NCBI RefSeq assembly: GCF_030144855.1
Contig: NC_082729.1
Coordinates: 35,154,001-35,218,000 of the forward strand
Length of the DNA stretch: 64,000 nt
Reading direction: 5' to 3'
DNA from: Hypanus sabinus
Lineage: Eukaryota
Shown: piece by piece, positions 10,850 to 34,903 of the stretch
Numbering within the stretch: position 1 is the stretch's first letter
How the letters are laid out: the number at the start of each line of letters is the position of its first letter
Position numbers and translations under genes: made by a program
Notes under the pieces: model-generated
Database searches by the model: none
Told to the model about the DNA's origin: nothing
Seen by the model: the letters and a program-made list of their open reading frames with translations, nothing else

Positions 10850-11839
10850 ATGTCGTTATCCGAAGGTGTGTCCAATTCGACGCTCGCTGGGAATCTGTCC
10901 TCCCACAATTCCACGGCCGATGGAAACATAATGGAGTGGGAAGCACTTTCCATCATGTCAACGGTCATCTTAACCCTCGCCGTCTTACTGGGCGTGCCGG
11001 GTAACGGCGCCGTCATCTGGGTGACGGGCTTCAAGATGAAGATTAAGGTCCACACGGTGTGTTTTCTGAACCTGGCTATGGCTGACCTGATCTATTGCCT
11101 GACTCTTCCCTTCCGCTTGGCCAACATGTTCCTGACCTACTCTGGGTACAAACCCTACTTTTCCCTGATGTGTATTGGATTCTTCATGATTTTCAACGCA
11201 TCCGCCAGCATATATCTCTTATGTCTGATCAGCATCTGCCGCTGCCTGGCTATTACTCGGCCCACGTGGTTCCAGCAACATCTGAGCCTCACGTGGGTGC
11301 GTGCGGCCTGCTTCGGAGTCTGGATCTTAGCCATCGTCATGTGCCTGCCCGTCCTCCTGCTTCCGGATTGGAAGAAGCAACGGACCGTCTTGGAGCTATT
11401 TTGGTTTGTTTTCATCTTCGGCCTCCCCCTTCTAATTATGATCACCTGCTACTCCCTGGCTGGCTGCAGGCTGCAAGGAAACAGGTTCACCAAATCTAAG
11501 AAACCTGTCCGCCTCATCATCACCGTGGTCGTCACCTTTATGATCTGTTGGATTCCCAACGCTGTCTGCGACCTCATATCAACCTTCTCCACACCGATCC
11601 CCGAAGCCTGGTCGTTACTCATTGTCGCCCTAGCCTCCTTGAACAGCGCCCTCAACCCCCTTCTCTATGTCTTCGCTGGCCGCGAATTCCACCAGGTCTT
11701 CAGGCGCTCCCTCCTCATCTCGCTCCATCTGGCCTTCACCGAGCAGAGGCTGGATTTGGAGACCCTGTCAAAGACCTTCAGCCACACCTCAATTAAGAAA
11801 GTCCGAGTCGTGGCCAGTCATCCCACCGATAACCCCTGA
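10850..11839 (+). CDS. Class A chemoattractant-receptor-like GPCR (C3aR/CMKLR1/FPR family-like), copy 1, intact, 329 aa
   Basis: Seven hydrophobic segments; GVPGNGAVIWV, FLNLAMADL, CWIP, NSALNPLLY; three N-terminal N-glycosylation sequons; polypyrimidine tract and CAG acceptor (AG 10840-10841) just before the ATG. Confidence 0.93.
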   Translation: MSLSEGVSNSTLAGNLSSHNSTADGNIMEWEALSIMSTVILTLAVLLGVPGNGAVIWVTGFKMKIKVHTVCFLNLAMADLIYCLTLPFRLANMFLTYSGYKPYFSLMCIGFFMIFNASASIYLLCLISICRCLAITRPTWFQQHLSLTWVRAACFGVWILAIVMCLPVLLLPDWKKQRTVLELFWFVFIFGLPLLIMITCYSLAGCRLQGNRFTKSKKPVRLIITVVVTFMICWIPNAVCDLISTFSTPIPEAWSLLIVALASLNSALNPLLYVFAGREFHQVFRRSLLISLHLAFTEQRLDLETLSKTFSHTSIKKVRVVASHPTDNP

Positions 11840-11915
11840 CTGCAGACATAGTTGACTGTCGGATGCAATTGTGGTCAGCAGTGGAGGCTTTCCTGCACCC
11901 CTAATTTAATCTCTC

Positions 11916-12395
11916 AGAACATAGAACATAGACCATTCGGCCTATAATTTGCCGTATCAATTCGATCAGTCGATAAATGCCCAATTAACCAAATCCCCAC
12001 GGCCTACCTTTATCCTTCCTTGATGCTGATTCCACCCATCTCAACATGTCTTAAAGGTCTCTAATCCATCTACTCTCACCACCATTCCAGGCAGCATATA
12101 GCAGGCACACACCACTGTTTGTGTAAATAAATTACCCCTCGCATCTCCTTTCGAAATGAATCACCCTCGCTGTAAATGCACGTCCGCTGTGTTAGAATTT
12201 TCAATCCTGTGAAACATACTGAATATCCATGCCTTTCATGATCTTCTAAATCTCATCCCGCCACCCCAGTGAAAATAAGTGTGTTCAACCTCTTGTAGTA
12301 GAAAATGCTCTCTAATACAGGCAGCATTCTCGTAAATCTCCTCTGCAAAACCTCGACAACTTTCCTGCAATGGGCGGCCAGAACTGTATACACCT
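11916..12395 (-). mobile_element. Old CR1-type 3' fragment downstream of the receptor
   Basis: AGAACATAGAACATAG tail repeat. Paralogs at about 35020-35510 and 61940-62420, with more diverged versions after copies 2 and 4. Confidence 0.65.
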
Positions 12396-12429
12396 CTTTC
12401 ACCAAGTAGTCTCCATGTTCCTATGACCT

Positions 12430-13040
12430 CTCTCCTTCCAAGTCATTTTCACACAGAGAACAGGATGTTTTTCTTTTCACAACTTTCTTTGTAAACTCTA
12501 CATACTGTCGTGCGTGAAAATCCCAATAAATCAGCAGTTTCTGAAATAATCAAAACAATCTGTCAGGCGTGAACTGTCATACGCGGTCAAAGTCACTTAG
12601 TTCACGTTTTTTCCCCATTCCGATGTTTGGTCTGTGCAACAACTGAATCACTTGACCATACCTGCATGTTTTCATGCATTGCGTTGCTGCCATCTGAGTG
12701 ACTGATTCGATCTTTGCATTAACGAGCAGGTATACAGGAGTACCTTATAAAGTGGCCTAATGAAACGTAAAGATTCTACATACCAAACTAATACTATAAA
12801 CAGCAGTAAATACTTAAAAAAAAAACAAAATCAGATCAATGTTTGGTGTTACCACCCTCTACCTTTAAAGCATCACTTCTCTTGCTTCCACAGTCATGCA
12901 GTTTTACAAGAACATCGTCTGGTAGGCCATCCCAAGCATCTTGGAGAACTTGTCACGGTCCTTCTGCACACCTTGGCTCTCTCGCTTGCTTCTGTTTCTC
13001 CAGGTAATCCCAGACAGCCTCAATGATGTTGAGATGAAGT
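12430..13040 (-). mobile_element. Tc1/mariner remnants (non-autonomous element end plus transposase C-terminus)
   Basis: TAAAGTGGCC TIR-like end near 12750; the minus strand near 13000-13035 encodes LNIIEAVWDYLE (Tc1 PDLNPIE.W motif). Confidence 0.75.
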
Positions 13041-13381
13041 CCCTCTGGAGACAATGCCATCCAAAACCACATATAAACGATCTAGCGTGCCGAGGACATT
13101 GGCATAGTGTTGATGTATCCTTTGATAGACAACATCACGGTGCACAGCACAACCAAACCCATGTGCCGCTTTCAAACCTGATAACCCACCTATCTGGATA
13201 TCCATACCTTTTATTGACATAGTATATATCACGAACAACTGAAATTACTAGCACAGCTCTGTGCGGACAACCGCCTGTCACTGACGTATGGTCAAAATAA
13301 CACACCCCCCACCCAACCCACTCCTCCCCACCTTCTATCGGCGTGCCGAAGTTGAATCCAGGGAATAAAGTCGCGGTGGAT

Positions 13382-16300
13382 CACGCCTACTACTGGCATT
13401 GCATGTAGATGTGTTTCTCCAACGGCTCCATTCTTTTTAAACTACTAAATCCAATCTGTTTTGAAATCTTACTTTTGAAGTATTATGACGTCTCGTGCTA
13501 AATCTTCTAAAAACAAAAGGATCCTTCTGTGACGATGGAAGCTATTGCGGAGCTAATTCGGAAAGCTCAGAGCGAAACGTCCGAACAACTTCTGGATGTG
13601 TATTTAAAAGTTGTCTAGGAGGTTAAATGAATGGGGATTCCGCTGCAGACTATTCAAAAAACTTCACAGGAACATGCTACTCAGATTCAAAAACATGAAA
13701 ATGCTTTTACGAGACTGATGACTTGGAAAAGTTCGGAGATAAACAATAGAAAATCATTGAATCTTTAAGACAAAAGATTGTCCCTTTGGAGAGTAGATCA
13801 AGAAGGAACAATATACGAATTTTGGGTCTTCCTGAGTTGGTTGAAGGAAACCGCCTTCAGAATTTTTGCAAATCTGTTCGTTCGCTTGTTCTCTGATGTT
13901 TTGGATAATCTGCCTAGAATTGATCGGCGCACCGTGCCCCAGTACTTAAATCATCTTCTGAACAAAAACCCCGACCTGTGATAACTGCTTTTCATGACTT
14001 CCAAACAAAGGTTACTATATTAGGTATCATTAGCTTTGAAGAGTACAAGATAAGCCTGGTCGAAGTTTATTCACCCGAGGTATTAAATGAACGTTTTTAG
14101 AACAAAAAAGTCATCTTTGAGTTATATAGCAAAGGCTATAAACCTTCACTAAATTACCCAGCGTGCCTCACAATCAGTTTGAAAAATTGATCTCCTAGGT
14201 TGTTTCTTTGGTTTGAGGAAGTGCACGATTTTCTTCAGACCGAATCAAGTCCAGAATAATAATTGTTTAATACTGTATTATGTAAACCATGCTTCCTTAG
14301 CTTGACCGATTCTTCGTTGTTGGAAGTTTGCAGTCTAAAGGTTTAGTACTTAAACTCCAGAAGTTTAACTGTATATTTTTGCTTCTTATAACCTCGTCCA
14401 CTCCGGCTGACTGATCAATCCGTTGCATTTTTGTAGTTTATTTGTTCAGCATTTCTTCCTTTGAATTATTCTTTTTACTTCGATATATTTTCATAAATAA
14501 TTATTTTTTTCCTCACGTTTTTTTCATTTTTGACTCTTTAGAAAATTAATAGACTTACGCTCAGTAAGCTTCCCTTGTAATTATTTTTGCAAGTACTATG
14601 TTTTGAATTTTTTTCAGTTCGTTTGAAGGTTATTTAGTCTATTTTTGGATTTCATTTTGTACTAATATTCTCTTAGAGCTCTGCCATAGGATATTGGGGG
14701 TGCGAATTATCACTAGGTTAGCTTTCTTGGGTGATTTCTTTCTTTGGGAGGGGTGGGGGGAGTGGGCCGTTTTTATTTTCTTTCTCCTATTTATCAGCTG
14801 TTTGGTTAGTTGCGGTTAAGTATTTTGAATGTTAATGTTTGGATTTTTGGTATATTCCAGTGGTTCATATGTTTAACCTCTCTAAACATATTTAAATGGT
14901 ACGCAATATTAATTTTCTTAGTTTAAATGTGAAAGGCTTAAACCACCCTGTGAAACGCAATAAGGTTTTTACCTATATTAAGAAATTGAATGCCTCAATT
15001 TTTTTTTACAAGAAACCTATGTTCGCAGAACTGACTGTGGACATTTGTTCAAACGTTGGAATGGACCAGCTTCCTTTCAAGCCAAGGCGAGAGTTACTTC
15101 TATTTTTATTGACAATTCAGTTGCGTTTGTTCAACATGATGCAATGTCTGACCCCAATGGGCGGTTCGTTATAGTCTCAGGGAAATTTGATAATAAACTA
15201 ATGGTTTTTGCTCATCTCTATGCTCGAATATAGATGATCTCGGCTTTTTTGAACTTTTTTTTTACCAGACTTAAATTTGTACTCTTTAATCTTGGGAGGT
15301 CATTTTAATTGTTGTCTTGACCCAGTTTTAGACCGTTCATATTAGAAACGATTGAATTATAGTCGATCTGCTTCCTATATGCAATCGTTTCTAATGAAAT
15401 GTGACACTATTGATCTTTGGCGTTTTTATATTCAACAAGTAGAGAATATTCCTTTTTTCTCATGTTCAGCATACCTATTCCAGGATTGATTATTTTTTGA
15501 CAATAGTCATTTGATACCCTCTGTTCGATCCTCTGAATATAAAGAAATTTCTGTTTCAGATCATGCCTCCGTCTTTTTATCAGTAAATATTCTGGGTGTT
15601 TCTCGATCAAACAGATGTTGGCGTTTTGATCAAATTTTACAATCGGATAAGGCCTTTTTTAATTTTTAAAGAGTCAACTTACTTTTTTCTCTGAAGAGAA
15701 TACGCTAGATGGCACTTCTAGCCTTATTATTTGGGTTGCTTTCAAGGCTTATATTAGAGACTGAATTATTTCCTATACAGCACGTATTAAGAAAAACGCT
15801 AATAAGAAGATTTAGCCAATCAGCGGAAATATTTCGATCAAAAATATGCTTTTAATTCGGATTCCGTCTTATATAAATTACGCGTTGAAAACTAAAAGTG
15901 ATCTGTTCTTAACTTAATCTGTTGAAACTCAACTTTTAAAAGATAAAAGTCAAATTTATGTTCATGGTGATAAAACAGGCAAACGTTTCGCTAATTAACT
16001 TAAAACTTTCATAGTTAAACGTCCAATTAAGGAAATCTCCAAAGCAATAGTGATATAACTTCTGATCAATTAAAAATATACGATACATTTAGAGAATTTT
16101 ACTTTAAACTCTCTTGAAGCCATTTTCTCTATGAATGAATTTCTAGATCGTCTGAACATTCCTTCACTTTCTAAGGTTAATCGATAATTGTAAGATCAGC
16201 CTTTTTTCTTCTGAGGAAGTTACCCGGTTTACCCATTCCCTGAGTTCCGGGAAGGCTCCCGGCCCGGATGGATTTTCTGGAGAGTTTTGTACGGCTTTCG

Positions 16301-18866
16301 TTCCTTTGCTTATTCCTCATTTACTTTCTATCCACCATCTTTTAAATTAGGCATTTTGCCAGAATCTTTTCATGACGCCTCTATTTCATTTATTCTCAAA
16401 AAGAATAAAAACCCGACTGATTGCTGTTCCTATAGACCTATTTCCTTACTTAATGTTGACGCTAAAATTTTATCCAAACTTTGGGCTCATAGCATGAAAG
16501 ACATTTGCCTTCTATTATCTCTGATGACCAGACCGGATTTCATAAAAATCGTTATTCTCATTTTAACATTCGTCGTTTGCTGAATGATATTTACTCTCTC
16601 TCTAAAGCGACTTAGGAATGCTCAATCTCATTAGATGCTGAGAAAGCCTTTGATGGGGTAAAATGGAGTTATTTATTAAAAATATTAGAAAAATTTAACT
16701 TTGGGTCCAATTCTATTCAATGGATTAAATTACTTTATTCATCTCCCACTGCACAGGTTCTTACTAACTCTCAGAGTTCTAAACTTTTCTGTCCCTAACG
16801 TGTACCAGACAAGAATGTCCTTTGAGTTCTTTGTTTTTTGATTTGGCTTCAGAGCCTTCAGCCATCGCGTTTAATGATTCCGTTGACTTCTCGGGTATTT
16901 TAAGGTATCACTCATTAGTTGTCGCTTTATGCTGATAAACTTTTGCTCTACATTTCTAATGTAAAGTCCTCTCTACCAGTACTTTCTTTACTTTCTGAGT
17001 TTGTTCAGTTCTCTGGATATAAACTTAGTCTTCATAAGAGAGAAGTTTTTCCTTTGACTAATTTAGCATCAGTCAACTCTGACCTTGCTTTTAAAATTGT
17101 AAGAAATCAATTTACTTATTTCGGCATAACAGTTACTAGGAATTATAAAATTCTTTTGAAAGAAAGCAATGTCACTCTTTTGGAATATGTTAAGAAGATA
17201 ACATCAGACTGGTCTCCTCTTTCTTTATCGCTGCTTGGACGTATCAATTCAATTCAAATAAATATTTTGCCTAAGGTTTTATATGTATTCCATACCCAGA
17301 ACGTTTTTATTCCTAAATCCTTTACTGACACTTTAGACTTGACTATATCTTCATATTTATGGAAGAATAACACCCTCCGATTTCACCTTCAGAAAAATAG
17401 AAAAAATGGGAATTAGCCCTACCCAATTTTAGGTTTTACTACTAAACAGTCAACAAACGCTACCTTACGTTTAGGTTATATTATATTAATCCTGATGACG
17501 ATCCGGTTTGGGTGCCTTCAGAAGTTAATTCAGATAATAAATATTCTATTATTTCTGTTCTTGGTTCTTCATTTCCTCTATCCTTGAGTAATTTAACTGA
17601 TAATTATGTAGTTAAACATTCTTTGAGGATTTGGTTAAAATTTAGAAAATTCTTTGGGATATTTGGTTTTTCACTCTCTGGTCCCAATTTTTCATATTAT
17701 TTTTTAAACCTTCTTTGACTGACGGAGCTTTTAAAGAGTGGAATAGACTGGTATTAAATGTTTTCAGCATCTGTTTATCTGAGAGGTCTTTCCTCATTTG
17801 ATTAACTATCTGTAAAATATAATCTTCGTAAAGCTGACTTTTTTTAGATGTTTACAAATTAGAGACTTCTTGCGTTCTCAACTTCATACATTTCCTAAAT
17901 GTTCAGATAAGAATTTAATTGATACAATTTTTTTATCTAAAACCTTTTCGTAATGGATCTATTTCTAATATTTATAGTATGTCGTTGGAAATGACAAACA
18001 TTCCGTTAGACAAAATTAAAAATCTCTGGGAAAAAGACCTGCAGGTTTCAATTGATGAGGATACTTGGAATGTAATTTTTAAACTTGTTCACACCTCATC
18101 GTTATGTGCATGTCACTCTCTTTTACAATTTAAAGTGTTTCATTCAGCCTGTATGACTGAAGATAAGCTCTCTCGTTTTCACTGAGATTTTTCTCCATAC
18201 TCTAATAGGTGTAATGTCGAGAGGCCTCTCTGATTCATATGTTTTGGTCCTGCCCTCAGTTTGATAAATTTTGGAAAGAAGTATTTAAAAATTCCTCAGA
18301 GCTTTTTAAAGTGAATTTTAAATCCAATACACTGACTCCCTTGTTTGGCATAATTGGAAGAAATGATTTTACTCTTCAGCCGACTGATCTGCATATTTGA
18401 GCTTTTATTTCTCTTTTTGCCAGAAGACTCTTGTTAGTTTAATGGAAAGATGCCGCTCCGCCTACTCATGCCCATTGGTTGATTGAGGTTATGTCATGTT
18501 TAAATCTAGAGAATTTCTATACCTAGACAATTTTTTTCACATTATGGGGACCTTTTTGGAACTAATTTCACAATCTTCGATTTGTTAAGCAATGATGATG
18601 GCCACTATTTGTTTGAATTTACGACTGTATGTCCCAGATTATTTCTTCTTCTCTTTTAACCAAGAAGCTGTTTCTCTCCCTCTTTTTTTGTGTAATGGGG
18701 TATTGTTTTTTCTTTAGATTAGAATAAAATATACATTTCCAATTTTATGGTTACCTTATTATACATAGATATGTGGCATTGTAACCTTGCTTCTGTTTCC
18801 ATGATATTACAATATTATAATATTGTATTCCTCTATGGAAGTAGTTAATATAAATATTGAAAAAGA
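13382..18866 (+). mobile_element. Full-length but decayed L1 LINE (ORF1 about 13480-14260; ORF2 from 14896)
   Basis: ORF1 ESRSRR-NIRILGLPE-like motif; ORF2 APE (SLNVKGLNHPVKR), RT (YRPISLLNVDAKIL, SLYAD), A-rich tail. 15-bp TSD AAAGTCGC(G/C)(G/A)TGGAT at 13367-13381 and 18867-18881. Many stops and frameshifts. Confidence 0.92.
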
Positions 18867-19208
18867 AAAGTCGCCATGGATTCCGTCCATAATATACACT
18901 CAATGACATCACCTCAGTGTTTTCGCCCCGTTGTACTTGAAAGATTGGCGCTCTCTACAGACGCACGACACTCGAGTATTTAAACCACTTCCTGCAAGCA
19001 GGGTGCTTTCCTCTTTCTTTCCGATATGAAGCACACAAGAGATAAGATCTCAGTTCATTTCTTATTTACCTTTGAAACAGCAATACCAATTAAGCTTTTA
19101 GTAATTTTAATAAAACGTTCATGGACATATTTGGAAGAAAATTTGTGTTTATGCTCCTTTAGACTGTATCAATATAGAGCACATGTACCATATAGTGTAA
19201 CGAGTACT

Positions 19209-20105
19209 TAGAAACATAGAAAACCTACAGCGCAATACAGGCCCATCGGCCCACGAAGTTGTTCCGTGCATGTCCCTACCCATAGCCCTCTATTCTTCTA
19301 AGCTCCATGAACCTATCTAAAATTCTCTTCAAAACTCCTATCCTATCCGCCTCCACCACCATTGCCGGTAGCCCATTTCACTCATTCACCACTCTTTGCA
19401 TAAAAATCTTACCCCGACATCTAGTCTGTAAGTACTCTGAAGCACCTTAAACCTGTGCCCTCTTGCGTCAGCCATTTCAGCCCTGTGAAGGAATCTCTGA
19501 CTATTCACACGATCAATGCCTCTCATCATCTTATACACCTCTATCACGTCACTTATCATCCTCCGTCGCTCCAAGGAGAAAAGGCCGGGTTCACTCAACC
19601 TGTTTTTACGAGGCATGTTCCCCAATCCAGGCAACATCCTTGTAAACCTCGTCTGCACCTTTTCTATAGTTTCCACATCCTTTCTATAGTAAGGCAACCA
19701 GAAATAAGCACAGTGCTCCAAGTGGGGTCTGACCAGTGTCCTACATAGCGGCAACATTACCTCTAGGCTCCTAAATTCAATTCCACGATTGATGAAGGCC
19801 GATACACCGTACGCCTTAACCACGGAGTCAATCTGCGCGGCTGCGTTAAGCGCCCTATGGACTCGGACCCCACGATCCCTCTGAGCCGCCACACTACCAA
19901 GTGTTTTATCATTAATACGATATCATTCCATCATACTTGACCTACCAAAATAAAACACTTCTCACTTATGTGGGTTGACCTCCATCTGCCAACTCTCAGC
20001 CCAATTTTGCATCCTATCAATGTCCCGGTGTAATCTTTGACAGCCCTCGATACAATCCACAACATCCCCAAGCTTTGTGTATTCAACAAACCTACTTACA
20101 ACAAA
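19209..20105 (-). mobile_element. CR1 RT/3' fragment
   Basis: ORF 19386-19892(-) LVRPHLEHC...RFTRMLPG; AGAAACATAGAAA tail. Paralog at 42839-43735; the left junction is empty at about 63643. Confidence 0.85.
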
Positions 20106-20563
20106 CTGGCACCGATAAGAGACGTTTGCATGGGCACATGAATGTGAGGAAAATGGACAGCAGACGGGATTATTATGTTGGCCATGCGATTACTAATCTA
20201 ATTGGTTCAGTACAATTTCTGTGACAATTTTGGACCATTTCTGTGCTGGATTCTTCTGCGTTTTTGCAGGACTCTGCAAAACGTCCTGAGCACTTTTCGG
20301 TACTGAGGGTGGCTTCGACTTTACCACAGTACTGTATTTATCAACGCAGTCCCGAGGGTGCCTTTGTAAATCTGGCGGGCAGTTCAACGGCTGTTGGGAA
20401 TGGCGAGGGTAAAGCACCACGGGAGGGATGTGGTAGAGGTGCCGGAGAAGCTGTGCTATGGGTGGTGAGGGTGGTGGTTGCTGTCGTGGGTGCAGACACT
20501 TGTAACTCTCAGACTCGAGGCAATTCATTTCATTCCATTCAATTGGTTTATTGATCATTACAG

Positions 20564-21468
20564 TGTTGCAATGCGTGTCTGTCAACAATAAATATGGAAG
20601 TGTCAACTTAATAAACAAATAATCAATTTATTGAACTCTGCTCAACAAAAATGAAAAGTAATCAGACGACTAACTTAAACGGAAGTTAACTGCTGTACGG
20701 CAACTCTAAAATAGTTCTTAAAGTGGTGAATGCGAAAACAGTCTTTAAGTGGTAAATGTGAAAGTCCTAGTGATTTATACAGTTAATTGGGAGAGACTTT
20801 CCTGAAGTAACGAATTCCTCGACGACGTGACGTTACTGCTACTCCCAGCCAAAGTATGCCTTGTCCGAACGATTCACAACGAAGGAAATAAAAACGACTT
20901 AAAGGAACTAACTTTTTTCTTGGTGAATGAACACTGCACAATCATTTATACTCTTACAAGTAGGGGTTATCTCAGATGCAGGTCACTATTTCCTAAACAA
21001 AGATTCAATAATGTCGATCCTGCAGTAAATATCCGACGACACCAACGTTACTCGATCCTTTGCGTTCCAGTACTTCGGTAAAATATTGACTCTCCAATAC
21101 ATAGTCTTTAAAATTAAATCAAAGATACGTCAAACATCACTGGCAGAGATTGGCAAAACTGCCAGCACAAAGATTCTGTACCTTACAGTGGAAAGTAAAT
21201 CTCTACTTTGAACGAAACTGCATCATAAGAGTAAATATGCAGCATAACGGAGTAACTGATCAGTTAAACGACGATTCAACACAAAAACTCGTGCGTCTCT
21301 GCAGGCTTTCCCGTTTTATACCTGTTGGAACCTGTCATCACGTGACCTCACACTGGCGGGAAAATTACATCACCCATACCATCACAAGACCATTACATCA
21401 TGCTCCAAGGACACTCAATTACATCACGGTCATAAGACAGTCACAAGATACCCACGGGGCATGTAAAA
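20564..21468 (-). mobile_element. Solo LTR
   Basis: Begins TGTT, with 4-bp TSD ACAG (20560-20563, 21469-21472). The minus strand has a TATAAAA box (about 21315) and AATAAA (about 20630). Empty sites at about 7280 and 60060. Confidence 0.8.
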
Positions 21469-22140
21469 ACAGAATGACTCTCTGATGCTTCCCGCGTCCT
21501 CCCGTCTCCATTCCCCTTTTCCAAACAATGATTTCATTCTCCAAGCCCTCTTCCCAGTCTCAGTCCACAACACGGGCCCATATCTGAATCAGGCTTGTCG
21601 TCACTCAGATACGTCATGAAATATGTTTTTATATTGGTGACTGTGCAATGTATCAAATGACTTAAGTACTTTGCAGTAATAGTCCCTTCCCGCCCAACGA
21701 GCCGCACTGCCCAGCAACCCACCTGGTTAAGCCTAGCCTAACCACAGGAAAGTTTACAAAGGTCAATTCACCAAAGACCCAGTATGCTTTTGGAATGTAG
21801 GGGTTAAGCGAAGCACCCGGAGGAATCCCGCACGGTCACGGGAGCTAATTTTACTGGTAGGAGTAGCTTGCTCACTCGAGTCCAGTCTCATGTTCTCCTG
21901 ACTGGTTGTCATCGGAGGGTCCTCAGCTGGCTGTAAAGAATGATCCAGGATCTACAGAACCACGATGTACGAGTGGATACCACAATGCAGAATGCCAGCA
22001 TGAAACGTTGTTTAACGTGCAGAATCTGATGCAGGGGCAGACACCACACGCTTCTTGAGTGATTGAGGGCTTGGGATGGGGCGATCAGGGTCCAGTGGTT
22101 GGAGAGCAAGACTTTGAGCTGGAGCAGACATCCGCCGCCT

Positions 22141-24186: not shown

Positions 24187-24190
<4 letters not shown>

Positions 24191-24250
<60 letters not shown>
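24191..24250 (+). repeat. (GA)30 microsatellite
   Basis: Perfect dinucleotide run. Confidence 0.98.
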
Positions 24251-24253
<3 letters not shown>

Positions 24254-24776
24254 AGAGGGAGAGAGGCACCATGATTCACATGCTGATAATGAGAGAGAGA
24301 AACAAGGATTTATAGTTATGGCTTCTTCGCTAATTGTTGACTACTTCCAAGGACTTTACCTGCTTGTGTGAGTCCCTGCTGATACAGCAGAGTGGTGTAA
24401 GGTGCCTGCTGAGACAGCAAGGAGTGGCCCAGTTTGATGGATATGGACATGGTCAGTTGACGGATGGCTGGTACACCAGCAGCGGAGATAAAAGACGAGT
24501 CTGCTAAGACAAAGACAGACAAACCACTGGAAACTGTGCAGAGTGTTGTGCACCCAGAGGAAGGTGGGGGCTTGGAGGATCTATTCGGGGGAATCTGTCA
24601 GATTCTCACAGTGTGCGAAGGCAGGCCGGTTGGGGGCTTGTGTGCGTGTCCACCCTCGCCTGGGTGTCGAGCCCACTACTGAAAAATTGTCTGGCCTGGA
24701 ACGGAAGGGTCATAATCGGTGACCACAACGACGGTACAACAGGACAAGATAACGAAGGTTTGCCTGCTGAAGCTGC

Positions 24777-24780
<4 letters not shown>

Positions 24781-24855
<75 letters not shown>
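24781..24855 (+). repeat. (CT)~37 microsatellite
   Basis: Perfect dinucleotide run. Confidence 0.98.
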
Positions 24856-24859
<4 letters not shown>

Positions 24860-25214
24860 TAACGTCACAACAGCAACTACCTCAACCCAAACTGAACTGA
24901 ACTGAACTCTGCATTACCTTAAGACTATTCATTTGATAGAGCTAATCTTTGATCGAGCTTGGTTTTGGTTTATATTTCCACACTTCTGTATATATCATTG
25001 CTAATCTGTTTTATATGTATACTAGCATTTTTGATTCTGTAGTACTTAGTTTACTAATAAACACTTTTAGTTACAGTACCACCGGACTCCAACTTATCAT
25101 TCCATTTCTATTGGTTAGGTAACCCAGTCAAGGGGTACGAGACAGCTCCAAAAGGGAATCATCTCACTCTTGTCTACATCAGCTATTTGTAGGTCCATAT
25201 CTGTAGCCAATATA

Positions 25215-25734
25215 CACTGAGTGGCCAATTCATAAGCTCTTCGAGGGCAACCCTGTGTGGTCTTCTGCTGCTGTAGTCCATCCACTGAAAGGATTGACAT
25301 GCCGTGCATTCAGAGATGCTCTTCTGCGCGCCGCTGTTCTAATGTGTGGTTATGCGGGGTACTGTCTGCTTCCTGTCAGCTTGAACGAGGCTGGACATTT
25401 TCCCACGACCTCTCTCTTCAGCAATACTGTTTCAACCACAGAACGGAATGTTTTTTCACACCTTTCTCTGTAAACTCGAGAGACTGTTGTGCATGAGGAC
25501 CTCATTTAATCAGCAGTTTCTGAAATATTCAAACCACCCTGTCAGGCTTGAACCATTATTCCACAGTCAAAGTCACTTCTTCCCCATTCTGATGTTTGGT
25601 CTGAACAATAACTGAACCTCTTGACCATGACTCCATGCTTTTATGCATTGCGTTGCTGCTACTTCATTGGTTAATAAGGTATTTGCATAAACAAGTAAGT
25701 ATACAGGTGTACTTAATATGGTCGCCATTGAGTA
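25215..25734. mobile_element. Tc1-like non-autonomous element (MITE)
   Basis: TA|CACTGAGTGGCCA...GCCATTGAGTA|TA degenerate TIRs with TA flanks. Paralog at about 48450-48968; partial copies at about 12430 and 35560. Confidence 0.7.
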
Positions 25735-25756
25735 TACAGCAGACTGTCCAATTATC

Positions 25757-26130
25757 TCATACACACACGTTTCAAAAATCCTGCAAAGTGAAGATGCTTT
25801 GAAACATAATGATGTGTTGAGTTTCTAAATATCAAAATAATGCTATGAAGAGCAGTAAACAGTAAAAATTAGCAAGATCAAACTAATATTTGGGTTTACC
25901 ACCCTTTCCTTTTAAAGCTGCATCGATACTCTTACGTGCACTGTCGTGCGGTTTTGTTAGAATCTTGGCTGGTTGGTTCTTCCAAGCATCATGGAGAACT
26001 TCTCACAATTCGTCTGCAGCTTTTGGCTATCTCGCTTGCATCGGTTATGCCAGGTAATCCCAAAGAGCCTCGACGATGTTTCGATTCGAGGTCTCTGAAG
26101 GCCGTGCAATCTAAAACCACATAGAATTAA
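25757..26130 (-). mobile_element. Tc1 transposase C-terminal remnant
   Basis: Homologous to 12760-13040 and 35870-36145; further paralogs at 48990-49340 and 1-51. Confidence 0.6.
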
Positions 26131-27129
26131 ATCTAGCATGCCGAAGATATTTACACGGTCATATATTTTGCTGAATCCTTTGATACCACTTCATGCGTAC
26201 GGGCTGCTTCTTTCTTTATTCACCCTTGAAACACTTACGCCCGAGACTCTTAATTTTAGCAGTTTTAGTAAAAGATTGGTTGACATATTTTGAAGAAAAT
26301 ATGATGTTTAAATTCATCCTCATGTCTATACCCCTACCTTCTGTATAGATATGTAATACATGCACCGTGTCCTGTTAAAAGTATCTGATTCCTATCTGAT
26401 AAAATCAGTAGAGCTAGGATGATAGGGGCGTGATTGTCTCAAGCAACAGCTACTTCTTTGGAGATCAATCAATTTCCATGCCATATTCCCGTCTTCCGCG
26501 TGTAAATTAAGAAAGTTACAGCTGCGCATGACGTCACAGCTCTTTTCAAGGATGGCATTGGGATCTTCAGACTTTTCAACGGTAAAATGATACACGCAAG
26601 TTTAAAAGCTCGAGAGAGACGGGAACTCCGCCAGTGACGGCAGAACAACAGAGGCTCACAGAACACGAGAAAGGCGGGGTCGGCAGCTCCAGAATCCTGG
26701 TGCACTGGACATCCCACACACCCACACGTTACCCTCAGCTCAGGTAATGCTGTCTTACTGTCACACACAGTGTGGAGGGTGTGAATGGAGCCCCGTACCG
26801 CCCCTGAATAACTGCGTGCGCGGGTAACAGGAAAGCGTGGCGTACAGGAACTCTGGCCTGGGAGAAAGTCCCGAAGGAGAGAGGGATGCAGGAACGGAGA
26901 AGTAGAAATTCTGTACACGACTCCACCCTCCACAACAACCTCACCCAAATAATACAAAAGCTAAAGGCAGACGAGGAAGACGAGGAACAAAACCCTACAG
27001 GGCCAGTGGGATTTTGAGGTCTTTTACGGTGGGGGAGAGAGCAGGACTTCAGACTTGTTACTTCCACCAGCAAACAGCTTCCTGACACAAACTACGACGC
27101 AGAATCTCTATTCCACTGTCTCGCAAACT

Positions 27130-28850
27130 CTAACAGCGATGAAGGTAGACCAGTAGTGGCTGACATTTCTGGAATCTATCAGAAGGCAAATAATCTAAGT
27201 AGCACAAAGTGCATGTATTCTCAAGGCAAGATAACGCAACCATGGTTAAAAAGGGAAGTCAGCGTCGACACAAAAACCAAAGCGAGGGTTTATCATAGAG
27301 CAAATTAGTGGAATGTTAGAGGATTTCGAACATTTTCAAAACCAACAGAAAGCAGCTCCAAAAGTCATTAATGTAAAGATCAAGATAAAAGTAAGTTTGT
27401 CAACAGTATTAAAGAGTATACCAAAAGTTTCCTCAGATATATGAAGTGTAAACCAGAGGCAAGAATCGGTATCGGTAAGTGATGCTAGAGGTGTAGCAGT
27501 GTGGGACAAAGAAAAGTTGGAAGAACTGACTATGCGTTTTGCATCAGTCTTCACTGTGGAAGACACTAGCGGTATGGTGGATGTTCAGGATGTCAGAGGC
27601 CATGACGTCTGTGAGATCACTGTTACTAGAGAGAATTTCTTCAGAAGCTGATACGTCTAAGGTGGCTAAGTCAGCTGGACCGATGGTGTACACCCCAGGG
27701 GTCCGAAAGAGATGGCTGAAGAGATTTTGCAGGCATTATTTGACGAAATAGCAAGAGGGATAGACAAGGAAGAATCGGTTGATGTTGTGTGCATAGATTT
27801 TCAGCAGGCTTTTGTGAAGGTGCCACACCTAAAGCTGGTTAACAAGCTGCAACCCCATGGATTTACGGGAAAGATTCCAGCATGGATAAAGCAGTGCCTG
27901 TTTAGCAGGAGACAGAGAGCGGGAGCCTTCTCTGGCTGGCTGCCGGTGACACGTTGGTTTCCTCAGTGGTCTCTGATGGGTCCGATTCTCTTTACATGAT
28001 ATGATCATAATTTGTAAGACGGAATTGATGGCTATGTTGCAAAGTTTGCAAGCGGTACAGATGGAATGGAATTTAGTTTTGGTGAAGTACAGAGGCTACA
28101 AAAGACAGATAAGGAGTATGGGCAAAGACGTAGCAGATGGAATACAGTGTCGGGAAATACATGGTCATGCACTTTGGTCGTAGACCTGAAAGTATTGACT
28201 ATTTTCAGAATGGAGAGATTTTTTTAAAACAACAAATGAGGTGTAACAGGACTTGTGGTTCCTTTTGCATGATACCATGAAGGTTAATCTTCAGATTGAT
28301 TTTGTGGAGAGGAAAACAGTCGTGTTGTCAGCATTCATTTCATAGGATACAGAACATAAAAACAAAGATGTAACGTTCAGAATTTATGAATCAATGCTAA
28401 AGTCTCACTTGCACTATTGTCATCGGTTTTTGGCTGATTAACTCAGAACGAATATGCTGATACTGGAAATGGCTCACAGGAGATACACGAAATTCTTTCC
28501 TGGATTGAAAGGCTTGTCAAGTGGAAAGCGTTTGATGGCTCTGCACCTGTATTTACTAGAATGAGCGTGGGCTAATTGAAACCTATCAAACAGTGAAAGG
28601 CCTTTATCGGGTTTCTGTGGAGAAGAGGTTTCCTTTGGTGGAAGAGTCTAATAATAGGGAACACAGCCTCAATGGCCTTTTAGAACACAGATGAGCAAGA
28701 ATTTATTTGGCCAGAAAGCAATGACTCTGTGGAATTAGTTGACACGGGCAGCTGTGGGGGCTAAGACTCTTGGTATACTTAAGGCAGAGGTTAATGAATT
28801 CTTGTGTGGCCAAAGCATGTATTGATAGGGATACGGGGGAATATAGAACA
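27130..28850 (+). mobile_element. Old CR1 ORF2 remnant
   Basis: ORF 27712-27999 VDVVCIDFQQAFVKVPH; paralog at about 53900-55250. Confidence 0.8.
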
Positions 28851-29309
28851 TTGTGACAGTGACGACCAACATAGACTTCATGGCGATTTTACTGAATACA
28901 GGAGATAACTAATAAAATAGCTGCTGACTGTACGGCAACAACTCGATTATTTTGTACAGATCTCAGATATTTGACCCCAACCACCGCCCCAACACAGACC
29001 CACAGTATAAAAAGCAGACACTGGACAGGATGAACCCCATTAACCATTTTCCTGTCATATTTTCAATTCACTTACATCCTTGTGAATCCTGTAACAATAT
29101 TGACAATATTCCCAACAATCCAGCGATGCCAATTCTTTTTTTTTATTTTGTAAATGTCATCACAAATGTACCCATGAGCACAACTCAAATTTAGTCCAAA
29201 TCCATTTAATCTGTCACAAGCAATAGAACTCTGATGACCAGTGTCTGCGCACGATTCCCTACACACGGACAGTCCGTCGTCTGTGGGAAAATTGGTTCTC
29301 AGTAAAACC

Positions 29310-29830
29310 TACCAAGTTCAACTTACAAAGTAAATTTATTATCAAAGTATACGTCACCATACACAACCCTGATATCCCTCTTTTCAGACCATTCACAGTA
29401 AATACAAAGAAACTATATACAATCAATTAAAAACTGTATACCAACATGGACAAACAACCAATGTGTAAAAGACACCAAATTGTGCAAATAGAAAAAAGTA
29501 AAACAAAATGACATCAAAAAAAATAACAAGAGTATTGAGAACTTGAGTGTAGAGTTCTTGAAATTGAGTCTGTAGGTTGTGAGAACTGTTCACTGTTGGG
29601 TGAGGGAAGTTATCTGATCTGATTCAGCAGCCTCGGATGGTCGATTGGGACATAACTGTTCCTGAACCTGGTGGTCCTCTACTGAAGGATCTGATGCCTC
29701 CTGCCCGATGGCTGCACAGAGATGTGAGCATGGCCTGGATGGCATGGGTCTTTGATGATGGATGCTGCTGTCCTGTGAGGGCTCTCCCTGCAGATGTGCT
29801 CGGGTGGTGGCCAGGTCTTACCCTATGATG
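29310..29830 (-). mobile_element. Rex1/Babar-like non-LTR 3' remnant
   Basis: The minus strand resembles the IIKDPxHPGH...LLPSGRR...RFRNS...IRLLN C-terminus typical of Rex1-type RTs, with an AATAAA and repeat tail near 29335. Confidence 0.55.
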
Positions 29831-30249
29831 GACTGCTAAAGTCCTACCAAGTCGCCGTGAATCCCATACACACCGCACAGTGAATGTGATACAGCAGAAA
29901 TTACTGCAATGCAGTATTTTGGAATTTACACTGCAACAAACTTTTCAAACTCGCTGGTTTCCGCGGATGTTTACGTCCAGGAAAGTCAATCTTCGGCCTC
30001 AACAAACTCGTGAGATTCAAGTGCGATCCCACCCTAAATCCCTTGTTTCTGTAGATGTTGTGTAATTCGCTACCCTGTTACAAACTGATGTCACGAAATA
30101 ACAGACAACGCACCACATGCGATCAAAAGATTTATCTTTGCAATTCCTGATTTGTCTACAGGGTTAGTAAAGAAAATGTCAAAAACAATGGCCCATTTTA
30201 ATGAAACAGACTAATATTCTCTCTCTTTGCTCTTTGCTCATTCCTCATA

Positions 30250-32330
30250 GTTCAGTGGCAATGGCTGCAGGAGTAGTGTTTTTTTTTTACTCTGTGTAGC
30301 GTGTGGGGTGTTTGTGAGACCTCCGGAGGCCCAAATAAACACACCTGAACCAGGTGCGTCGAGATGCAGTTCCTGAGACAACGTATTAAGGAATTGGAGC
30401 TGCAGCTCCACGACCTTCGACAGATACGAGAGAATGGGGAAGTGAAAGACAGGAACTACAACCAGGAAATCAATTCAAAAATTCAGGAGACATTAACTGT
30501 CAGGAGAAGGATGGGAAATACACGGCCAGTACTCCTGCAGCTGTTTCCCTCAATAATAAGTATACAACTTTAAATACTATTGAGGGAGACGAATTACCAG
30601 GAGAGGGGGGGCACAGTAACCGGGTCTGAGTGCTCTACATCCGCAGAGCAGAGAGGTGAAGACGACTGAAGTGTTGACCGTCAAATAAACGGAGATGATA
30701 TTCTCTGGGCAGGTGAACAACACCAGACTGGCATGTTGCCTCCCTGGTGCCAGGATCAGTGATGTCTCTAAACGGATCCATGGCATTCCCAAAGGCGAGA
30801 GTGAGCAGGCAGAAGTCTTCGTATGTATTGGCACCAATGAACTAGGGAGACAAAGTGAGGAAATCCTGAAGAGATTTCAGATAGGTCAATAGAAAGCTGA
30901 GAATCTGAGAATAAAGCTGAGAATAAAGACCACAGGGGCAGTAATCGCTGGATTGCTGCTTGAGGCATGTGCCAGTGATAGTGAGGAGAGGAAGGTTTGC
31001 CAGTTCATTGTGTGGCTGATGAGCTCGTGTAAGGAGCAGGCAGAGGTTCAGATTTAGAGATCACCGGGATCTCCTCTGGGGAAGGTATGGCCTGTAAAAA
31101 AGGGACAGATTACACCTGAATTCAAGTTTCGCTGAAGTTGTTCGGGAATGTTTTTGGCAAGGCAGTGGAAACAAGAGTGATAGTGCTAAATATGAGCTAG
31201 TTGGTTTCCAAACAAAGGCAAATGCGTACTCAGGCTCCACGCAAGGAAAGGCTAATGACAGTAAAAATTGTAGTCAACAGGAATGGTCACAAAGTAAAAC
31301 GTGGCTAAACTCGAAGTGTGTGAACAGGAGACTGAAGGTACGATATTTGAATTCACACAGCAGACGGAATCAGGTGGATGAACTTGTATTGTAGCACCGT
31401 TACAGATTGGCATGTATGATGGTGTGGACATTACCGGATCGTGGCTGAATGAAGATTGTAGCTGGGAGCTTCGGATAGACAATGTATCGAAAGGTCAGTC
31501 AGGAAAGCAGAGGGGAGACACTACTCTGTTGGGAAAAAAATGAAATGAAATCATTGAGGATTGAACTATGGAATTACAAGTGCAAGAAACCCTGGTTGAA
31601 GTAATTGGGGAATTGAGTAGAAAGCTTAGGGTAAAAGACCTCAAAGGGGAAGTGATCATAACATAAACTGATTTACTCTGAGAAGGAGAAGCTGAACGTA
31701 GATCTATCAGAATGACAGCAGAGTAAAGGGAATTAAACTCATGAGAAAGGAGTTGGCCAGATTGATTGGAAAAGAACACTGGAAGTGATGATGGCAGAGA
31801 AGCAATGGCTGGAATTTCTCGAAGGAATTCGGAAGGCAGGGCATATATAGATCCAAAAGAGGAAGTATTCTAGAAGCAAAATGAAACATCATTGCCAAGA
31901 AGAGAAATTAAAGCTAACGTAAAGCCAAACATCGGCTATATATTCCACTAAGAATTGCTCGAAATTTAAGGGAGGAGCAAGCTTTTAAAAACCAACTGGA
32001 AAAAAAATAAAAAGTAATTAAAACCCTCAAGATGGAATAGGAAGGTAAGCTAGCCAATAATATTAAACAGGACACTAAATGTTTCTTTAGAGAAGTAAAG
32101 TGTTAAAGAGGGAGACAGGTAATATTGGACCGCTGTAAAAAGGTGCTGGAGAGATAGTAATGTGGGACACGGAAAGAGCGGAACACCTGAACAAGTATTT
32201 TGCATCAATGTTCATTGTGTAAGACACCAGCATGAAGTGTGTGAATTCAGTATTCCTAGCGAGAAGATTTTGGGGAACTTCAAAGGTCTGAACGTAGATA
32301 AGTCACATGGACCAGATGGGGTTAATTTCA
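30250..32330 (+). mobile_element. Old CR1 5' portion (ORF1 with SGNH esterase, APE region)
   Basis: ORFs 30364-30573 (ELELQLHDLR) and 30695-30892 (CCLPGARISD, IGTNE). Confidence 0.75.
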
Positions 32331-32334
32331 GAAA

Positions 32335-32990
32335 TTAACCGCTTAGCCTCTTCTGTCTACTTTACTTCTCAAAAATAAAGGAAATATTCCGTTCTTCGCA
32401 TCTCTCTGCGGGAAGTATAACCTCCTGGTGTCAACAGCTCAACTTCCTCATATTGGGCTTCTTGGAACTTCAAATGCAGAGAGTTTCTACCGAGGTGGAC
32501 TAACTCTTCTCTTCGGCTCATTCGGAATTAAGACCCCACCGTTGCTAAATCAGCATCCAAATTCCGCACAGGGCACAACTCCTTAAAGTACCTGGAGCAC
32601 CCGTTGAATCTCACCGTCCAATTTAACGTCTGAGTGTAAGTATTCAAAACTGCTGTGAACCGGAAACGGAGCCGGGAATTCCAGGAAAAGGTGAGATGCA
32701 TTTCAATGGGATTTATATTGCATACGTGTAATTTGGAAATGTGGCGTCTGACCAGGATGGCTGGTTTGCGGAAGAAACCCGACCTTCCTACTTTTGGGAG
32801 GATTTTCAGGAGATAACTCAATAACTCAGTGAATGCAGGGCAGTAAGTTTGTTAACATTCAGTTCAATGAGGAGAACTCTAGAGATTATAGATGCTGGTC
32901 TTGTTTTCCATGGGGTCGAAGGACACTGACCGATGACTTGACAAAATAAATAAAGATAACAGGTACAGAGACAGTGTAGATAGAATCATT
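32335..32990 (+). promoter_or_regulatory. Putative promoter and exon 1 of receptor copy 3
   Basis: Paralog of 5570-6190, with ACTTCCTCAT at 32442-32451, TTGCTAAAT at 32542-32550 and donor AAG|GTGAGA (GT 32691-32692). Confidence 0.45.
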
Positions 32991-33004
32991 TTCAGAAATT
33001 CCAG

Positions 33005-33895
33005 AACGAGAGTAGAGATAGCCGAGGAAATTATACACCAGTGAGTCTTCCCTCAGCGGTTGTTACATTAATGTAGAAGATCCTTAGAGGAAGTATTTAA
33101 GAACATTTGGAAAGGTATAATATGGTTAGGAATAGTCAGCTTGGCTTTGAGATGGGCAGGTCGTGCCTTACGAGCCTGATTTCATTTTTTGAGGATGTGA
33201 CTAAACACAGTGATGAAGGAAGAGCAGCAGATGTAACGTATAGAGATTTCTGCAAAGCATTTGATAAGGTACCACATGCAGGGGTTACTGAGAAAGTAAG
33301 GAGGCAATGCCCAAGGGGACATTGCTTTGTGGATACAAACCTGCCTTGCCCACAGAACACAAAGATTGGTTGTAGGTGGGTCATGTTCTGCATGGAGGTC
33401 AGTCACCAGTCGAGTGCCTCAGGGATCTGTTCTGGACCCTTGCTCTTCGTGATTTTTATCAATGACCTGGATGAGGAAGTATGCTTGCTGATGACACAAA
33501 GTTTGGGGATGTTGTGGATAATGTGGAGGGCTGTCAGAGGTTACAGCACGATATTGATAGGATGCAAAACTGGGCTGAGAGGTGGCAGATGGAGGTCGAC
33601 ACAGATAAGTGTGAAGTGGTTCATTTCGCTAGGTCAAATATGATGGCAGACTATAGTAATAATGGTAAGACTCTTGGCAGTGAGGAGCATCAGAGGAATC
33701 TTGTGGTTCGAGTCCATAAGACGCTTAAAGCGGCTGCACAGGTTAACTCTGTGGTTAAGAAGGCATATGGTGTATTGGCCTTCATCAATCGTGGAATTGA
33801 ATTTAGGAGCCGAGAGGTAATGTTGCAGCTATAGAGGACCCTGGTCAGACCCCATTTGGAGTACTGTGCTCAGTTTTGCTCGACTCACGACGGGA
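33005..33895 (+). mobile_element. CR1 RT fragment, truncated on both sides by deletions
   Basis: ORFs 33107-33643 and 33481-33834; colinear with about 9135-9970. Confidence 0.85.
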
Positions 33896-33949
33896 AGGCT
33901 GTAGTGCACCCCTCTCACTTTCACAATATCTCCTCCACCAGATCCGCCG

Positions 33950-34903
33950 ATGTCAGTCTCAGAAGGAGTATCCAACACGACGCTCGCTGGGAATGACTCC
34001 TCCCACAATACCACGGCCGTTGGAAACATGGAGTGGGATGCACCTTCCGTCATGTCAATGGTCATCTTCATCCTCACATTCCTACTGGGCGTCCCGGGTA
34101 ACGGTGCAGTCATCTGGGTGACGAGCTTCAAAATGAAGATTAAGGTCCACACGGTGTGTTTCCTGAACCTGGCTATGGCTGACCTGATCTATTGCCTGAC
34201 TCTTCCATTCCGCATTACCAACAACTCGCTGGCCTATTCTGGGTACAACCCCTACTTTTCCTGGAAGTATATTGGATTCTTCATGCTCCTCAACGCATCC
34301 GCCAGCGTATATCTGTTATGTCTGATCAGCATCTGCCGCTGCCTGGCTATTGCTCAACCTATTTGGTTCCAGCAACTTCTGAGCCTCCGATGGGTGCGTG
34401 CAGCCTGTTTCGGTGTCTGGATCCTAGCCTTCGTCATATGCCTGCCCGTCCTCCTGATCCAGGATTTGGGCAAGTGGATGACCGTGTTAGAGCTATTTTG
34501 GTTTCTTTTCATCTTCGGACTCCCCTTTCTAATTATGATCACCTGCTACTCGCTGGTTGGCTGGAAGCTGCAAGGGAGCAGGTTCGCCAAATCTAAAAAG
34601 CCTCTCCGCCTTATCATCACCGTGGTCGTCACATTTATGATCTGTTGGATTCCCAACGCTGTCTACGACCTCATATCAACCTTCTCCACACCGATCCCCG
34701 GAGCGTGGTCGTTACTCACTGTCGCCCTAGCCTCCTTGAACAGCGCCCTCAATCCTCTTCTCTATCTCTTCTCTGGCCGCGAATTTCACCAGGTCTGCAG
34801 CCGCTCGATTCTCGCCTCGCTCCGTCTGGCTTTCGCCGAGCAGAGGCTGGAATTGGAGACCCAGTCCCAGGCCTCCAACTTCACCTCAAATACGAATGTC
34901 TGA
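33950..34903 (+). CDS. Class A chemoattractant-receptor-like GPCR, copy 3, intact, 317 aa
   Basis: Same 7TM motifs as copy 1 (roughly 80% identical by eye); branch-point-like CTCAC, polypyrimidine tract and acceptor AG at 33940-33941. Confidence 0.94.
   Translation: MSVSEGVSNTTLAGNDSSHNTTAVGNMEWDAPSVMSMVIFILTFLLGVPGNGAVIWVTSFKMKIKVHTVCFLNLAMADLIYCLTLPFRITNNSLAYSGYNPYFSWKYIGFFMLLNASASVYLLCLISICRCLAIAQPIWFQQLLSLRWVRAACFGVWILAFVICLPVLLIQDLGKWMTVLELFWFLFIFGLPFLIMITCYSLVGWKLQGSRFAKSKKPLRLIITVVVTFMICWIPNAVYDLISTFSTPIPGAWSLLTVALASLNSALNPLLYLFSGREFHQVCSRSILASLRLAFAEQRLELETQSQASNFTSNTNV

Follow-up and report, generated by a model that had tools for sequence, protein, structure and literature searches.

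A ray clade of C3aR/C5aR-type receptors with a shortened second extracellular loop and no TM3-ECL2 disulfide

Background

What becomes of a chemoattractant-type receptor when the loop over its ligand pocket and the associated disulfide are gone? The question is raised by a 64,000-nucleotide stretch of DNA from the ray Hypanus sabinus (the window; C43:35154001-35218000 in genome G000), in which tblastn and blastn located five receptor copies, two of them intact genes (copies 1 and 3) and three pseudogenes (copies 2, 4 and 5). The original prediction, made from the letters of the window, held that these receptors lack the disulfide between transmembrane helix 3 (TM3) and extracellular loop 2 (ECL2), and that they form a lineage-specific subfamily with a miniature ECL2. 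According to passages of PMC9287403, this bond is kept in over 90% of the G-protein-coupled receptors (GPCRs) that make up class A. Among named proteins, those closest to the window receptors are from myliobatiform rays.

The short-loop ray family is real and apparently undescribed so far. No published description was found in the literature searched, which comprised neither subscription journals nor supplements, so that gene-family tables of ray genomes could list the expansion. Term searches of the river-stingray genome paper (PMC10787021) and the catshark sensory paper (PMC11979771) returned no mention of C3a in the parts covered, and the passages covered of a vertebrate GPCR survey (PMC6504862) make no mention of sharks. 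Since the signalling core is kept and the lid and the complement-gripping residues are lost, the receptors are likely to be working, diversifying sensors for other ligands. The best explanation, towards which the evidence tilts modestly, is that they are open-topped, G-protein-signalling receptors by which immune or barrier tissue senses a variety of non-complement ligands.

Results and discussion

Loss of the lid and of the disulfide

Copies 1 and 3 each contain a class A GPCR domain (Pfam PF00001, 7tm_1; 118-121 bits). With position 3.25 assigned by stepping 25 residues back from R3.50, the Cys of the TM3-ECL2 disulfide is replaced by Leu in copy 1 and Trp in copy 3, and the links LPDWKKQR and IQDLGKWM between TM4 and TM5 contain no Cys, as had been predicted. 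Aligned with human C3aR by phmmer, copy 3 has SWK opposite the Cys of FLCK. Copy 1 has a Cys at 3.27 (11171-11173), again with no partner in ECL2. Copy 5, put forward as a further family member with the motif PYFSRK, is indeed a receptor copy, albeit a pseudogene (start lost, stop at W4.50, 16-nt deletion).

The span from W4.50 to P5.50 measures 35 residues in the window copies versus 56 in the parent-type ray and shark receptor, and could be scored in 207 of 209 stored homologues. It reaches 46 residues or more in 128 long-loop relatives, every one of which has C3.25 (128/128), and 42 or fewer in 79 short-loop proteins, a few of which are damaged gene models. C3.25 is present in six of the 79. 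The joint presence of C3.25 and an ECL2 Cys, the check proposed against the loss, is found in none of the 69 short-loop rows of the main tree described below, versus 45 of its 46 canonical rows.

An AlphaFold2 model of copy 3, built on a 63-row alignment (mean predicted local distance difference test score 75.8, about 78 at the turn), has seven helices and helix 8, with TM4 at residues 146-169, a 3-residue turn, TM5 at 173-206 and no strands. In the control model of P0066, a canonical ray receptor, hairpin strands occupy residues 173-178 and 183-188 around Cys186, and the gap of 16 residues between the receptors of span 56 and those of span 40 coincides with this hairpin. The ECL2 had been described correctly as short; in the model it is a loop of three residues, not about eight. 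The accompanying statement that C3aR has a very large ECL2 fails as a general rule, since fish and coelacanth proteins of that name have spans of 49-66. The pocket of the short-loop receptors is predicted to be uncovered on top, in keeping with the proposed open pocket; that it is also shallow finds no such backing, as W6.48 is kept in 67 of 69 rows, whereas S6.48 of MrgD goes with a shallow site.

Three other readings were rejected. No ECL2 exon is missing, as the reading frame runs on unbroken and the junction is identical in four genera; an assembly error was discarded; and there is no conserved Cys pair that would make a replacement disulfide.

Two oddities were noted among the short-loop loci. 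Four members of one subgroup of the 35-residue class (L005, L008, L009 and L011) again have a Cys (TGT) at 3.25, with no ECL2 partner, which is probably a reversion because of the nested position of that subgroup. Locus L038 (G000:C43:25333650-25334546) is open with only 23 residues between W4.50 and P5.50, parts of TM4 and TM5 themselves being deleted.

Origin of the short-loop clade

The main tree comprised 121 rows (LG+G4, quick search, support by the Shimodaira-Hasegawa-like approximate likelihood-ratio test, SH-aLRT, only; columns filled in 90% of rows) and left out near-duplicate loci, Hypanus-named proteins and many outgroups. In it the 69 short-loop rows make up one side of a branch with an SH-aLRT of 99; they are nested inside canonical ray genes and these inside shark genes, with chimaera as sister. 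The classes of span 35 and 31 are sisters, nested among genes of the 40 class. A second tree (69 rows, LG+C20, quick, SH-aLRT only) grouped 22 of 22 short-loop rows with support of 100. The chondrichthyan clade joins C3AR1 and C5AR1 (support 98; chondrichthyan subclade 97-99; quick trees, SH-aLRT only) and, in the 69-row tree, which holds no mammalian formyl peptide receptor (FPR), stands apart from two lizard MRGPR-like domains and two frog FPR-like proteins.

In approximately unbiased (AU) tests a canonical chondrichthyan clade without the short-loop genes was rejected (p-AU 0.006). Neither C3AR1 nor C5AR1 was rejected as sister (p-AU 0.59 and 0.57), nor was a union with the two MRGPR-like lizard domains, two long branches only (p-AU 0.21). 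Canonical ray genes share 45-54% identity with copy 3, versus 24-25% for these lizard domains. Synteny markers for C3AR1 versus C5AR1 were uninformative: PF07933 matched on C77 and PF15266 on C29 and C16, PF03587 had no match, and none lay on C43.

The short-loop genes are one ray-specific clade descended from a chondrichthyan gene of C3aR/C5aR type. The phylogeny proposed as a check thus returned the lineage-specific subfamily that had been expected, a single clade in four ray genera, with a scope of dozens of genes that reaches far beyond the window. The order of loss is shown as well: a first 16-residue deletion took the hairpin and its Cys (56 to 40), and cuts to 35 and to 31 and shorter followed. 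As the clade occurs in a sawfish as well as in stingrays, a Mesozoic origin is implied.

The best matches in G000 to a second shark anaphylatoxin-type receptor (P0178/P0186, which groups weakly with C5AR1) are the canonical C43 copies at 44-48% identity, and no orthologue of it was found there. Rays may have lost this receptor.

Family size and distribution

The genome search of G000 gave 125 matches out of 543 candidates, which makes the family counts lower bounds. Seventy loci were taken, and 51 of them have a frame spanning the receptor profile: 25 of the 35 class, 11 of span 39-40, 9 of span 23-31 and 6 canonical. At least 44 open short-loop frames exist (L016 was dropped for an internal stop), 28 on C43, 2 on C377 and 14 on small contigs; 13 equal-length frames among the latter share 98-100% DNA identity. 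These loci (L012-L027, on contigs such as C1020, C236, C1215, C1285, C2429 and C2491) hold at least 14 open near-identical copies of one 35-class gene, most of which pair with a stop-bearing match some 15-20 kb off, and either reflect redundancy in the assembly or arose by segmental amplification very recently. On C43 a first receptor block (22.1-27.0 Mb) is sorted by class: 40-class and canonical genes occupy 22.3-23.1 Mb, and 23.7-26.9 Mb holds the 35 and 31 classes. The window lies in a second block, at 35.1-35.3 Mb.

Of the 79 short-loop proteins among the 207 scored, every one is either the window's own or named from Hypanus, Hemitrygon, Mobula or Pristis. The proteins found in sharks and chimaera were without exception canonical, one or two per species. 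Among the best 120 matches listed there was no skate or electric-ray name, which does not establish their absence. Short-loop orthologues in Hemitrygon are 72-94% identical, and that of copy 1 (P0005) 93%.

The look at expression covered four sequencing runs for copy 3, for which no RNA source was listed, and four for the paralogue L031, with X2-X4 common to both sets. Two contigs from these runs were not used as evidence. One of 300 nt in run X4, which is only guessed to be RNA, lies on the short-loop paralogue L031 (depth 2.8, 15 differences in 299 nt, no splice joint), and one of 1883 nt in run X2 fits the canonical copies by mismatch count. A search of the Atlas gave generic chemoattractant-receptor clusters only.

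Ligand-site residues

Passages of PMC13635228 describe R5.42, Y6.51 and D7.35 as contacts of the C3a C-terminus. These are kept in 45, 44 and 44 of the 46 canonical rows versus 2, 10 and 0 of the 69 short-loop rows, and the window copies 1 and 3 have W, N and S instead. When R4.64, which we take to be a fourth ligand-gripping residue, is counted as well, 38 canonical rows have the full set and the remaining 8 have three; of the short-loop rows, 46 lack them all, 21 keep one and 2 keep two. The canonical chondrichthyan receptors have a Tyr-rich, acidic N-terminus (3-7 Tyr in the examples), whereas that of both window copies is Tyr-free and carries three glycosylation sites. Since R5.42, Y6.51 and D7.35 are lost, the ligands probably differ from the anaphylatoxins. 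The concern of the original prediction over mis-annotation was justified as to ligand, on which the names C3aR-like, FPR-like and fMLF-receptor-like mislead; as a statement of ancestry, "C3aR-like" is fair.

Genome G000 gave five anaphylatoxin-domain matches among 80 candidates scored, so the ligands did not expand alongside the receptors and co-expansion was rejected. It is very improbable that complement anaphylatoxins or their des-Arg forms are still bound in a remodelled mode. The direct descent from the anaphylatoxin-receptor type would fit this, as would the standing of C3aR as the best match in both sequence and fold, and the failure to find the second shark receptor in G000 leaves a function that might need filling; yet D7.35 occurs in 0/69 and R5.42 in 2/69 rows, no row keeps more than two of the four residues checked, and five anaphylatoxin domains face at least 30 distinct receptors, with six canonical copies remaining.

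The 35 class has a polar set of its own: R2.60 (18/20), N6.51 (16/20), D6.55 (15/20) and E5.39 (16/20), the last ancestral. A peptide or zwitterion carrying a basic as well as an acidic group would fit such a set. MrgD binds beta-alanine via an Arg and an Asp near the surface (passages of PMC9287403), a likeness that is an analogy only.

Signalling residues

The switch residues are nearly invariant in the 69 short-loop rows: D2.50 in 69, R3.50 in 68, W6.48 in 67, N7.49 and Y7.53 in 69, F6.44 in 67-69 and Y5.58 in 62. The acidic residue at 3.49 is absent from all 69, DRC having become CRC at 3.49-3.51 in the window copies, a loss that the original prediction did not mention. Loss of this salt bridge is expected to yield constitutive activity (PMC3610872). 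It is accordingly conceivable, if rather improbable, that the receptors work mostly independently of ligands, either setting a constitutive tone or, as decoys or partners in heterodimers, modulating the canonical anaphylatoxin receptors of the same cluster. The high basal Gi activity of MrgD (PMC9287403, in part) and the abolition of arrestin recruitment by disulfide loss in peptide receptors (PMC10419011, in part) agree with this. Dozens of paralogues with subclass-specific pocket residues and selected rim sites would be hard to explain in such a scheme, however, and CysLT1 (FRC) and CysLT2 (VRF) are working, ligand-driven receptors without D3.49, as passages of PMC10570957 describe.

Selection

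Codon models were fitted to gap-free columns of G000 paralogues (10 genes of the 35 class, 8 of the 31 class, 10 of the 40 class, 28 together). For the core and intracellular parts omega, the ratio of non-synonymous to synonymous rates, was 0.35 (35 class), 0.63 (31), 0.30 (40) and 0.36 (28 genes), all below 1 (p at most 0.001 per class; p below 1e-19 for the 35 and 40 classes and for the 28 genes combined). The core is clearly under purifying selection. For the extracellular and pocket parts the values were 0.81, 1.78 (p 0.03), 0.92 and 0.88, respectively. Model M2a improved on M1a by twice the log-likelihood difference of 18.3 (35 class), 55.7 (31), 7.8 (40) and 29.7 (28 genes). The top site of the 35 class is 3.25 itself (posterior 0.999; residues W, L, M, C, G and N), and in the 31 class sites above 0.9 fall on 6 of 30 extracellular positions versus 3 of 180 others (Fisher p 0.0003). 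Diversifying selection on the pocket rim is solid in the 31 class and tentative in the window's own 35 class.

These figures bear on two further alternatives. The genes might be mostly surplus duplicates, the deletion having crippled ligand binding and the copies drifting in a duplication-prone region. Pseudogenes are many (three of five copies in the window and many stop-bearing matches genome-wide), extracellular omega is near 1 in the 35 and 40 classes, and the 14 small-contig copies are near-identical, all of which this account would predict. It is nonetheless quite improbable in view of a core omega of 0.30-0.36 for the 35 class, the 40 class and all genes together, the invariant switch residues, and open orthologues kept across genera in a clade that covers sawfish and stingrays. 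The clade might instead have been co-opted as an external chemosensory repertoire in nose, skin or mouth. One would expect such a repertoire to be large and clustered, to turn over by birth and death and to show positive selection at the rim, as is seen here, and within the same receptor group rodent FPRs passed from immune cells to the vomeronasal organ (PMC7873101). This is unlikely, however, as the parent is an immune receptor type and the layout of splice acceptor and ATG is unchanged in each of the four copies whose 5' end is intact; a promoter swap was not looked for.

A probable repertoire of open-topped sensors

If the receptors are open-topped sensors of non-complement ligands, the following mechanism may be proposed. 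The receptors have lost the residues that grip anaphylatoxins, along with the ECL2 hairpin and the TM3-ECL2 disulfide, and have kept the transmission and G-protein-facing residues under constraint. The products would stand at the cell surface with an uncovered vestibule and, with R3.50, Y5.58, a basic intracellular loop 3 (ICL3) and helix 8 all kept, would couple to Gi/o-type proteins as the parent does. Loss of D3.49 would raise the basal tone, arrestin recruitment might be weaker, and the ligands would be non-complement and subclass-specific. In peptide receptors, mutants of the disulfide arrived at the membrane in most cases and no longer recruited arrestin (PMC10419011, in part).

Several observations weigh against the sensor explanation, or against parts of it. 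The replacement disulfide of MrgD is required for its surface expression (passages of PMC9287403), and the 63 aligned short-loop members have no conserved Cys pair, including none in the C4.64-C5.33 columns. The narrower placement, inside the elasmobranch genes alone, fell short of significance (p-AU 0.074), and turnover is high, three of five window copies being dead. The codon models come from the author's own script, with a DNA tree, branch lengths fixed up to scale and naive empirical Bayes. In the 35 class the extracellular omega of 0.81 does not differ from 1 (p 0.22) and only two sites exceed a posterior of 0.9, one of them intracellular, so relaxed constraint accounts for much of the variation in that class. 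Gene conversion was detected in the 35 (p 0.014) and 31 (p 0.002) classes. When the alignment was split in thirds the 35-class signal was weak (p 0.02, 0.03 and 0.65), and that of the 31 class held in all three. The six canonical copies also yield a weak M2a signal (p 0.015).

A bolder form of the sensor explanation, attractive though somewhat doubtful, is that rays re-invented an MRGPR-like repertoire independently from a complement receptor. A genome would then hold at least 30 GPCRs that fold and signal without a lid or any extracellular disulfide and with hardly any ECL2. In these, 3.25, freed from the bond, and the rim would serve as specificity sites under diversifying selection, and the whole would be an undescribed germline-encoded means by which cartilaginous fish detect peptides of microbes, parasites or the environment.

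The parent receptor, intermediates of 40, 35 and 31 residues and dozens of paralogues co-exist in one genome. They provide a natural series for studying how lid and disulfide affect folding, ligand range, basal activity and the recruitment of arrestin, and for following how a dedicated peptide receptor founds a broad repertoire. They further suggest that automatic C3aR-like or FPR-like names conceal a large receptor family of ray immunity or chemosensation that has gone unrecognised.

Other features of the window

The coordinates are collected in Table 1. The layout of pyrimidine tract, CCAG and ATG is common to copies 1, 3, 4 and 5, and the CCAG may mark an intron in the 5' untranslated region of each. 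Copies 1 and 3 are 79% identical. The long interspersed nuclear element (LINE)-like insert of copy 2 is also carried by copy 4 (45912-47164), so this insertion is older than their duplication. A reverse-transcriptase-bearing element at 33000-33904 ends about 45 nt 5' of the ATG of copy 3, so that between them only the acceptor and the end of the pyrimidine tract remain; the splicing or the expression of that copy may be affected. An intronless Ribosomal_S8-family frame at 41500-41892, presumably a processed RPS15A copy, was inserted in one of the two duplicated units, and at 57831-59273 a LINE-type element has a long open frame for RVT_1 (480 aa).

Table 1. Receptor copies and associated features of the window
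Feature	Position	Strand	Remarks
Copy 1, intact single-coding-exon class A GPCR, 329 aa	10850..11839	+	short-ECL2 35 class; L3.25, C3.27, CRC at 3.49-3.51
Splice-acceptor-like CCAG after pyrimidine tract, 8 nt 5' of copy 1 ATG	10838..10841	+	sequence
Copy 1 codon 3.25, Leu (CTG) replacing the disulfide Cys	11165..11167	+	sequence
Copy 1 TM4-TM5 link LPDWKKQR, without Cys	11360..11383	+	sequence
Copy 2, pseudogene fragments 22138-22284 and 23523-23742, with stops and LINE-like insert between	22138..23742	+	
LINE-like insert inside copy 2	22298..23525	.	70% like RVT_1-bearing element at 58125-59350
Copy 3 (P0001), intact single-coding-exon class A GPCR, 317 aa	33950..34903	+	35 class; W3.25, CRC
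Copy 3 codon 3.25, Trp (TGG)	34262..34264	+	top positively selected site in 35 class
Copy 3 TM4-TM5 link IQDLGKWM, without Cys	34457..34480	+	residues 170-172 are the predicted turn
Copy 4, pseudogene, parts 45531-45892 and 47162-47874, with stops and LINE-like insert	45531..47874	+	
Copy 5, pseudogene	60883..61850	+	ATG>TTG at 60883, TGA at W4.50 (61354-61356), 16-nt deletion near 3' end
Tandem duplication, period about 23 kb, copies 1 and 2 versus copies 3 and 4	10805..51135	+	78-88% DNA identity, self-blastn

Comparison with known receptor systems

C3aR (C3AR1) and C5aR1 are the nearest known system. They share with the ray receptors the best sequence match (phmmer E 1e-54), the fold (Foldseek TM-score 0.73; in a second fold search Z 28.3 and root-mean-square deviation 2.1 for 259 residues, many class A receptors being tied), the same tree group (98), a single coding exon, and a similar ICL3 and helix 8. 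The ray receptors differ from them in the want of the ECL2 hairpin, the C3.25-C45.50 bond and D3.49, in the replacement of R5.42, Y6.51 and D7.35, in the loss of N-terminal Tyr, and in numbering dozens of paralogues rather than one or two genes.

MRGPRD and the MRGPRX receptors have neither C3.25 nor C45.50, and their ECL2 is too short to cover the pocket (passages of PMC9287403), features that the ray receptors share. MRGPRs are locally duplicated families, as is the ray clade, and MAS receptors are reported from amphibians upward (PMC6504862, in part). Unlike the ray receptors, however, MRGPRs carry a C4.64-C5.33 disulfide, and MrgD has S6.48 with a TM6 shift tied to its shallow site (passages of PMC9287403), where the ray clade keeps W6.48 in 67 of 69 rows. 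With no such bond and no small residue at 6.48, the ray clade is not filed as MRGPR. The likeness is likely to be convergence.

Melanocortin receptors have ECL3 disulfides with no counterpart in the ray receptors, belong to another class A branch and showed no kinship in any search. They resemble the ray clade in a short ECL2 and the absence of C3.25, which go with a wide peptide vestibule as described in passages of PMC9287403. No MRGPR or melanocortin structure was among the best 50 rows of either fold list, which excludes nothing.

FPRs keep the TM3-ECL2 disulfide, unlike the ray clade, which moreover does not group with the two frog FPR-like proteins; FPRs also score below C3aR in phmmer. 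The vomeronasal FPRs of rodents offer a parallel of another kind, an immune chemoattractant receptor that was expanded and neofunctionalised in one lineage (PMC7873101). Among 134 new representatives, the chemoattractant-type receptors P0305 (W4.50-P5.50 span 36), P0300 (from the frog Hymenochirus) and P0322 have independently lost C3.25 and the ECL2 Cys while keeping D3.49, so that the loss is a recurrent event. Judged by its sequences, the ray clade is an anaphylatoxin-receptor descendant that fails the ligand-site features of that family.

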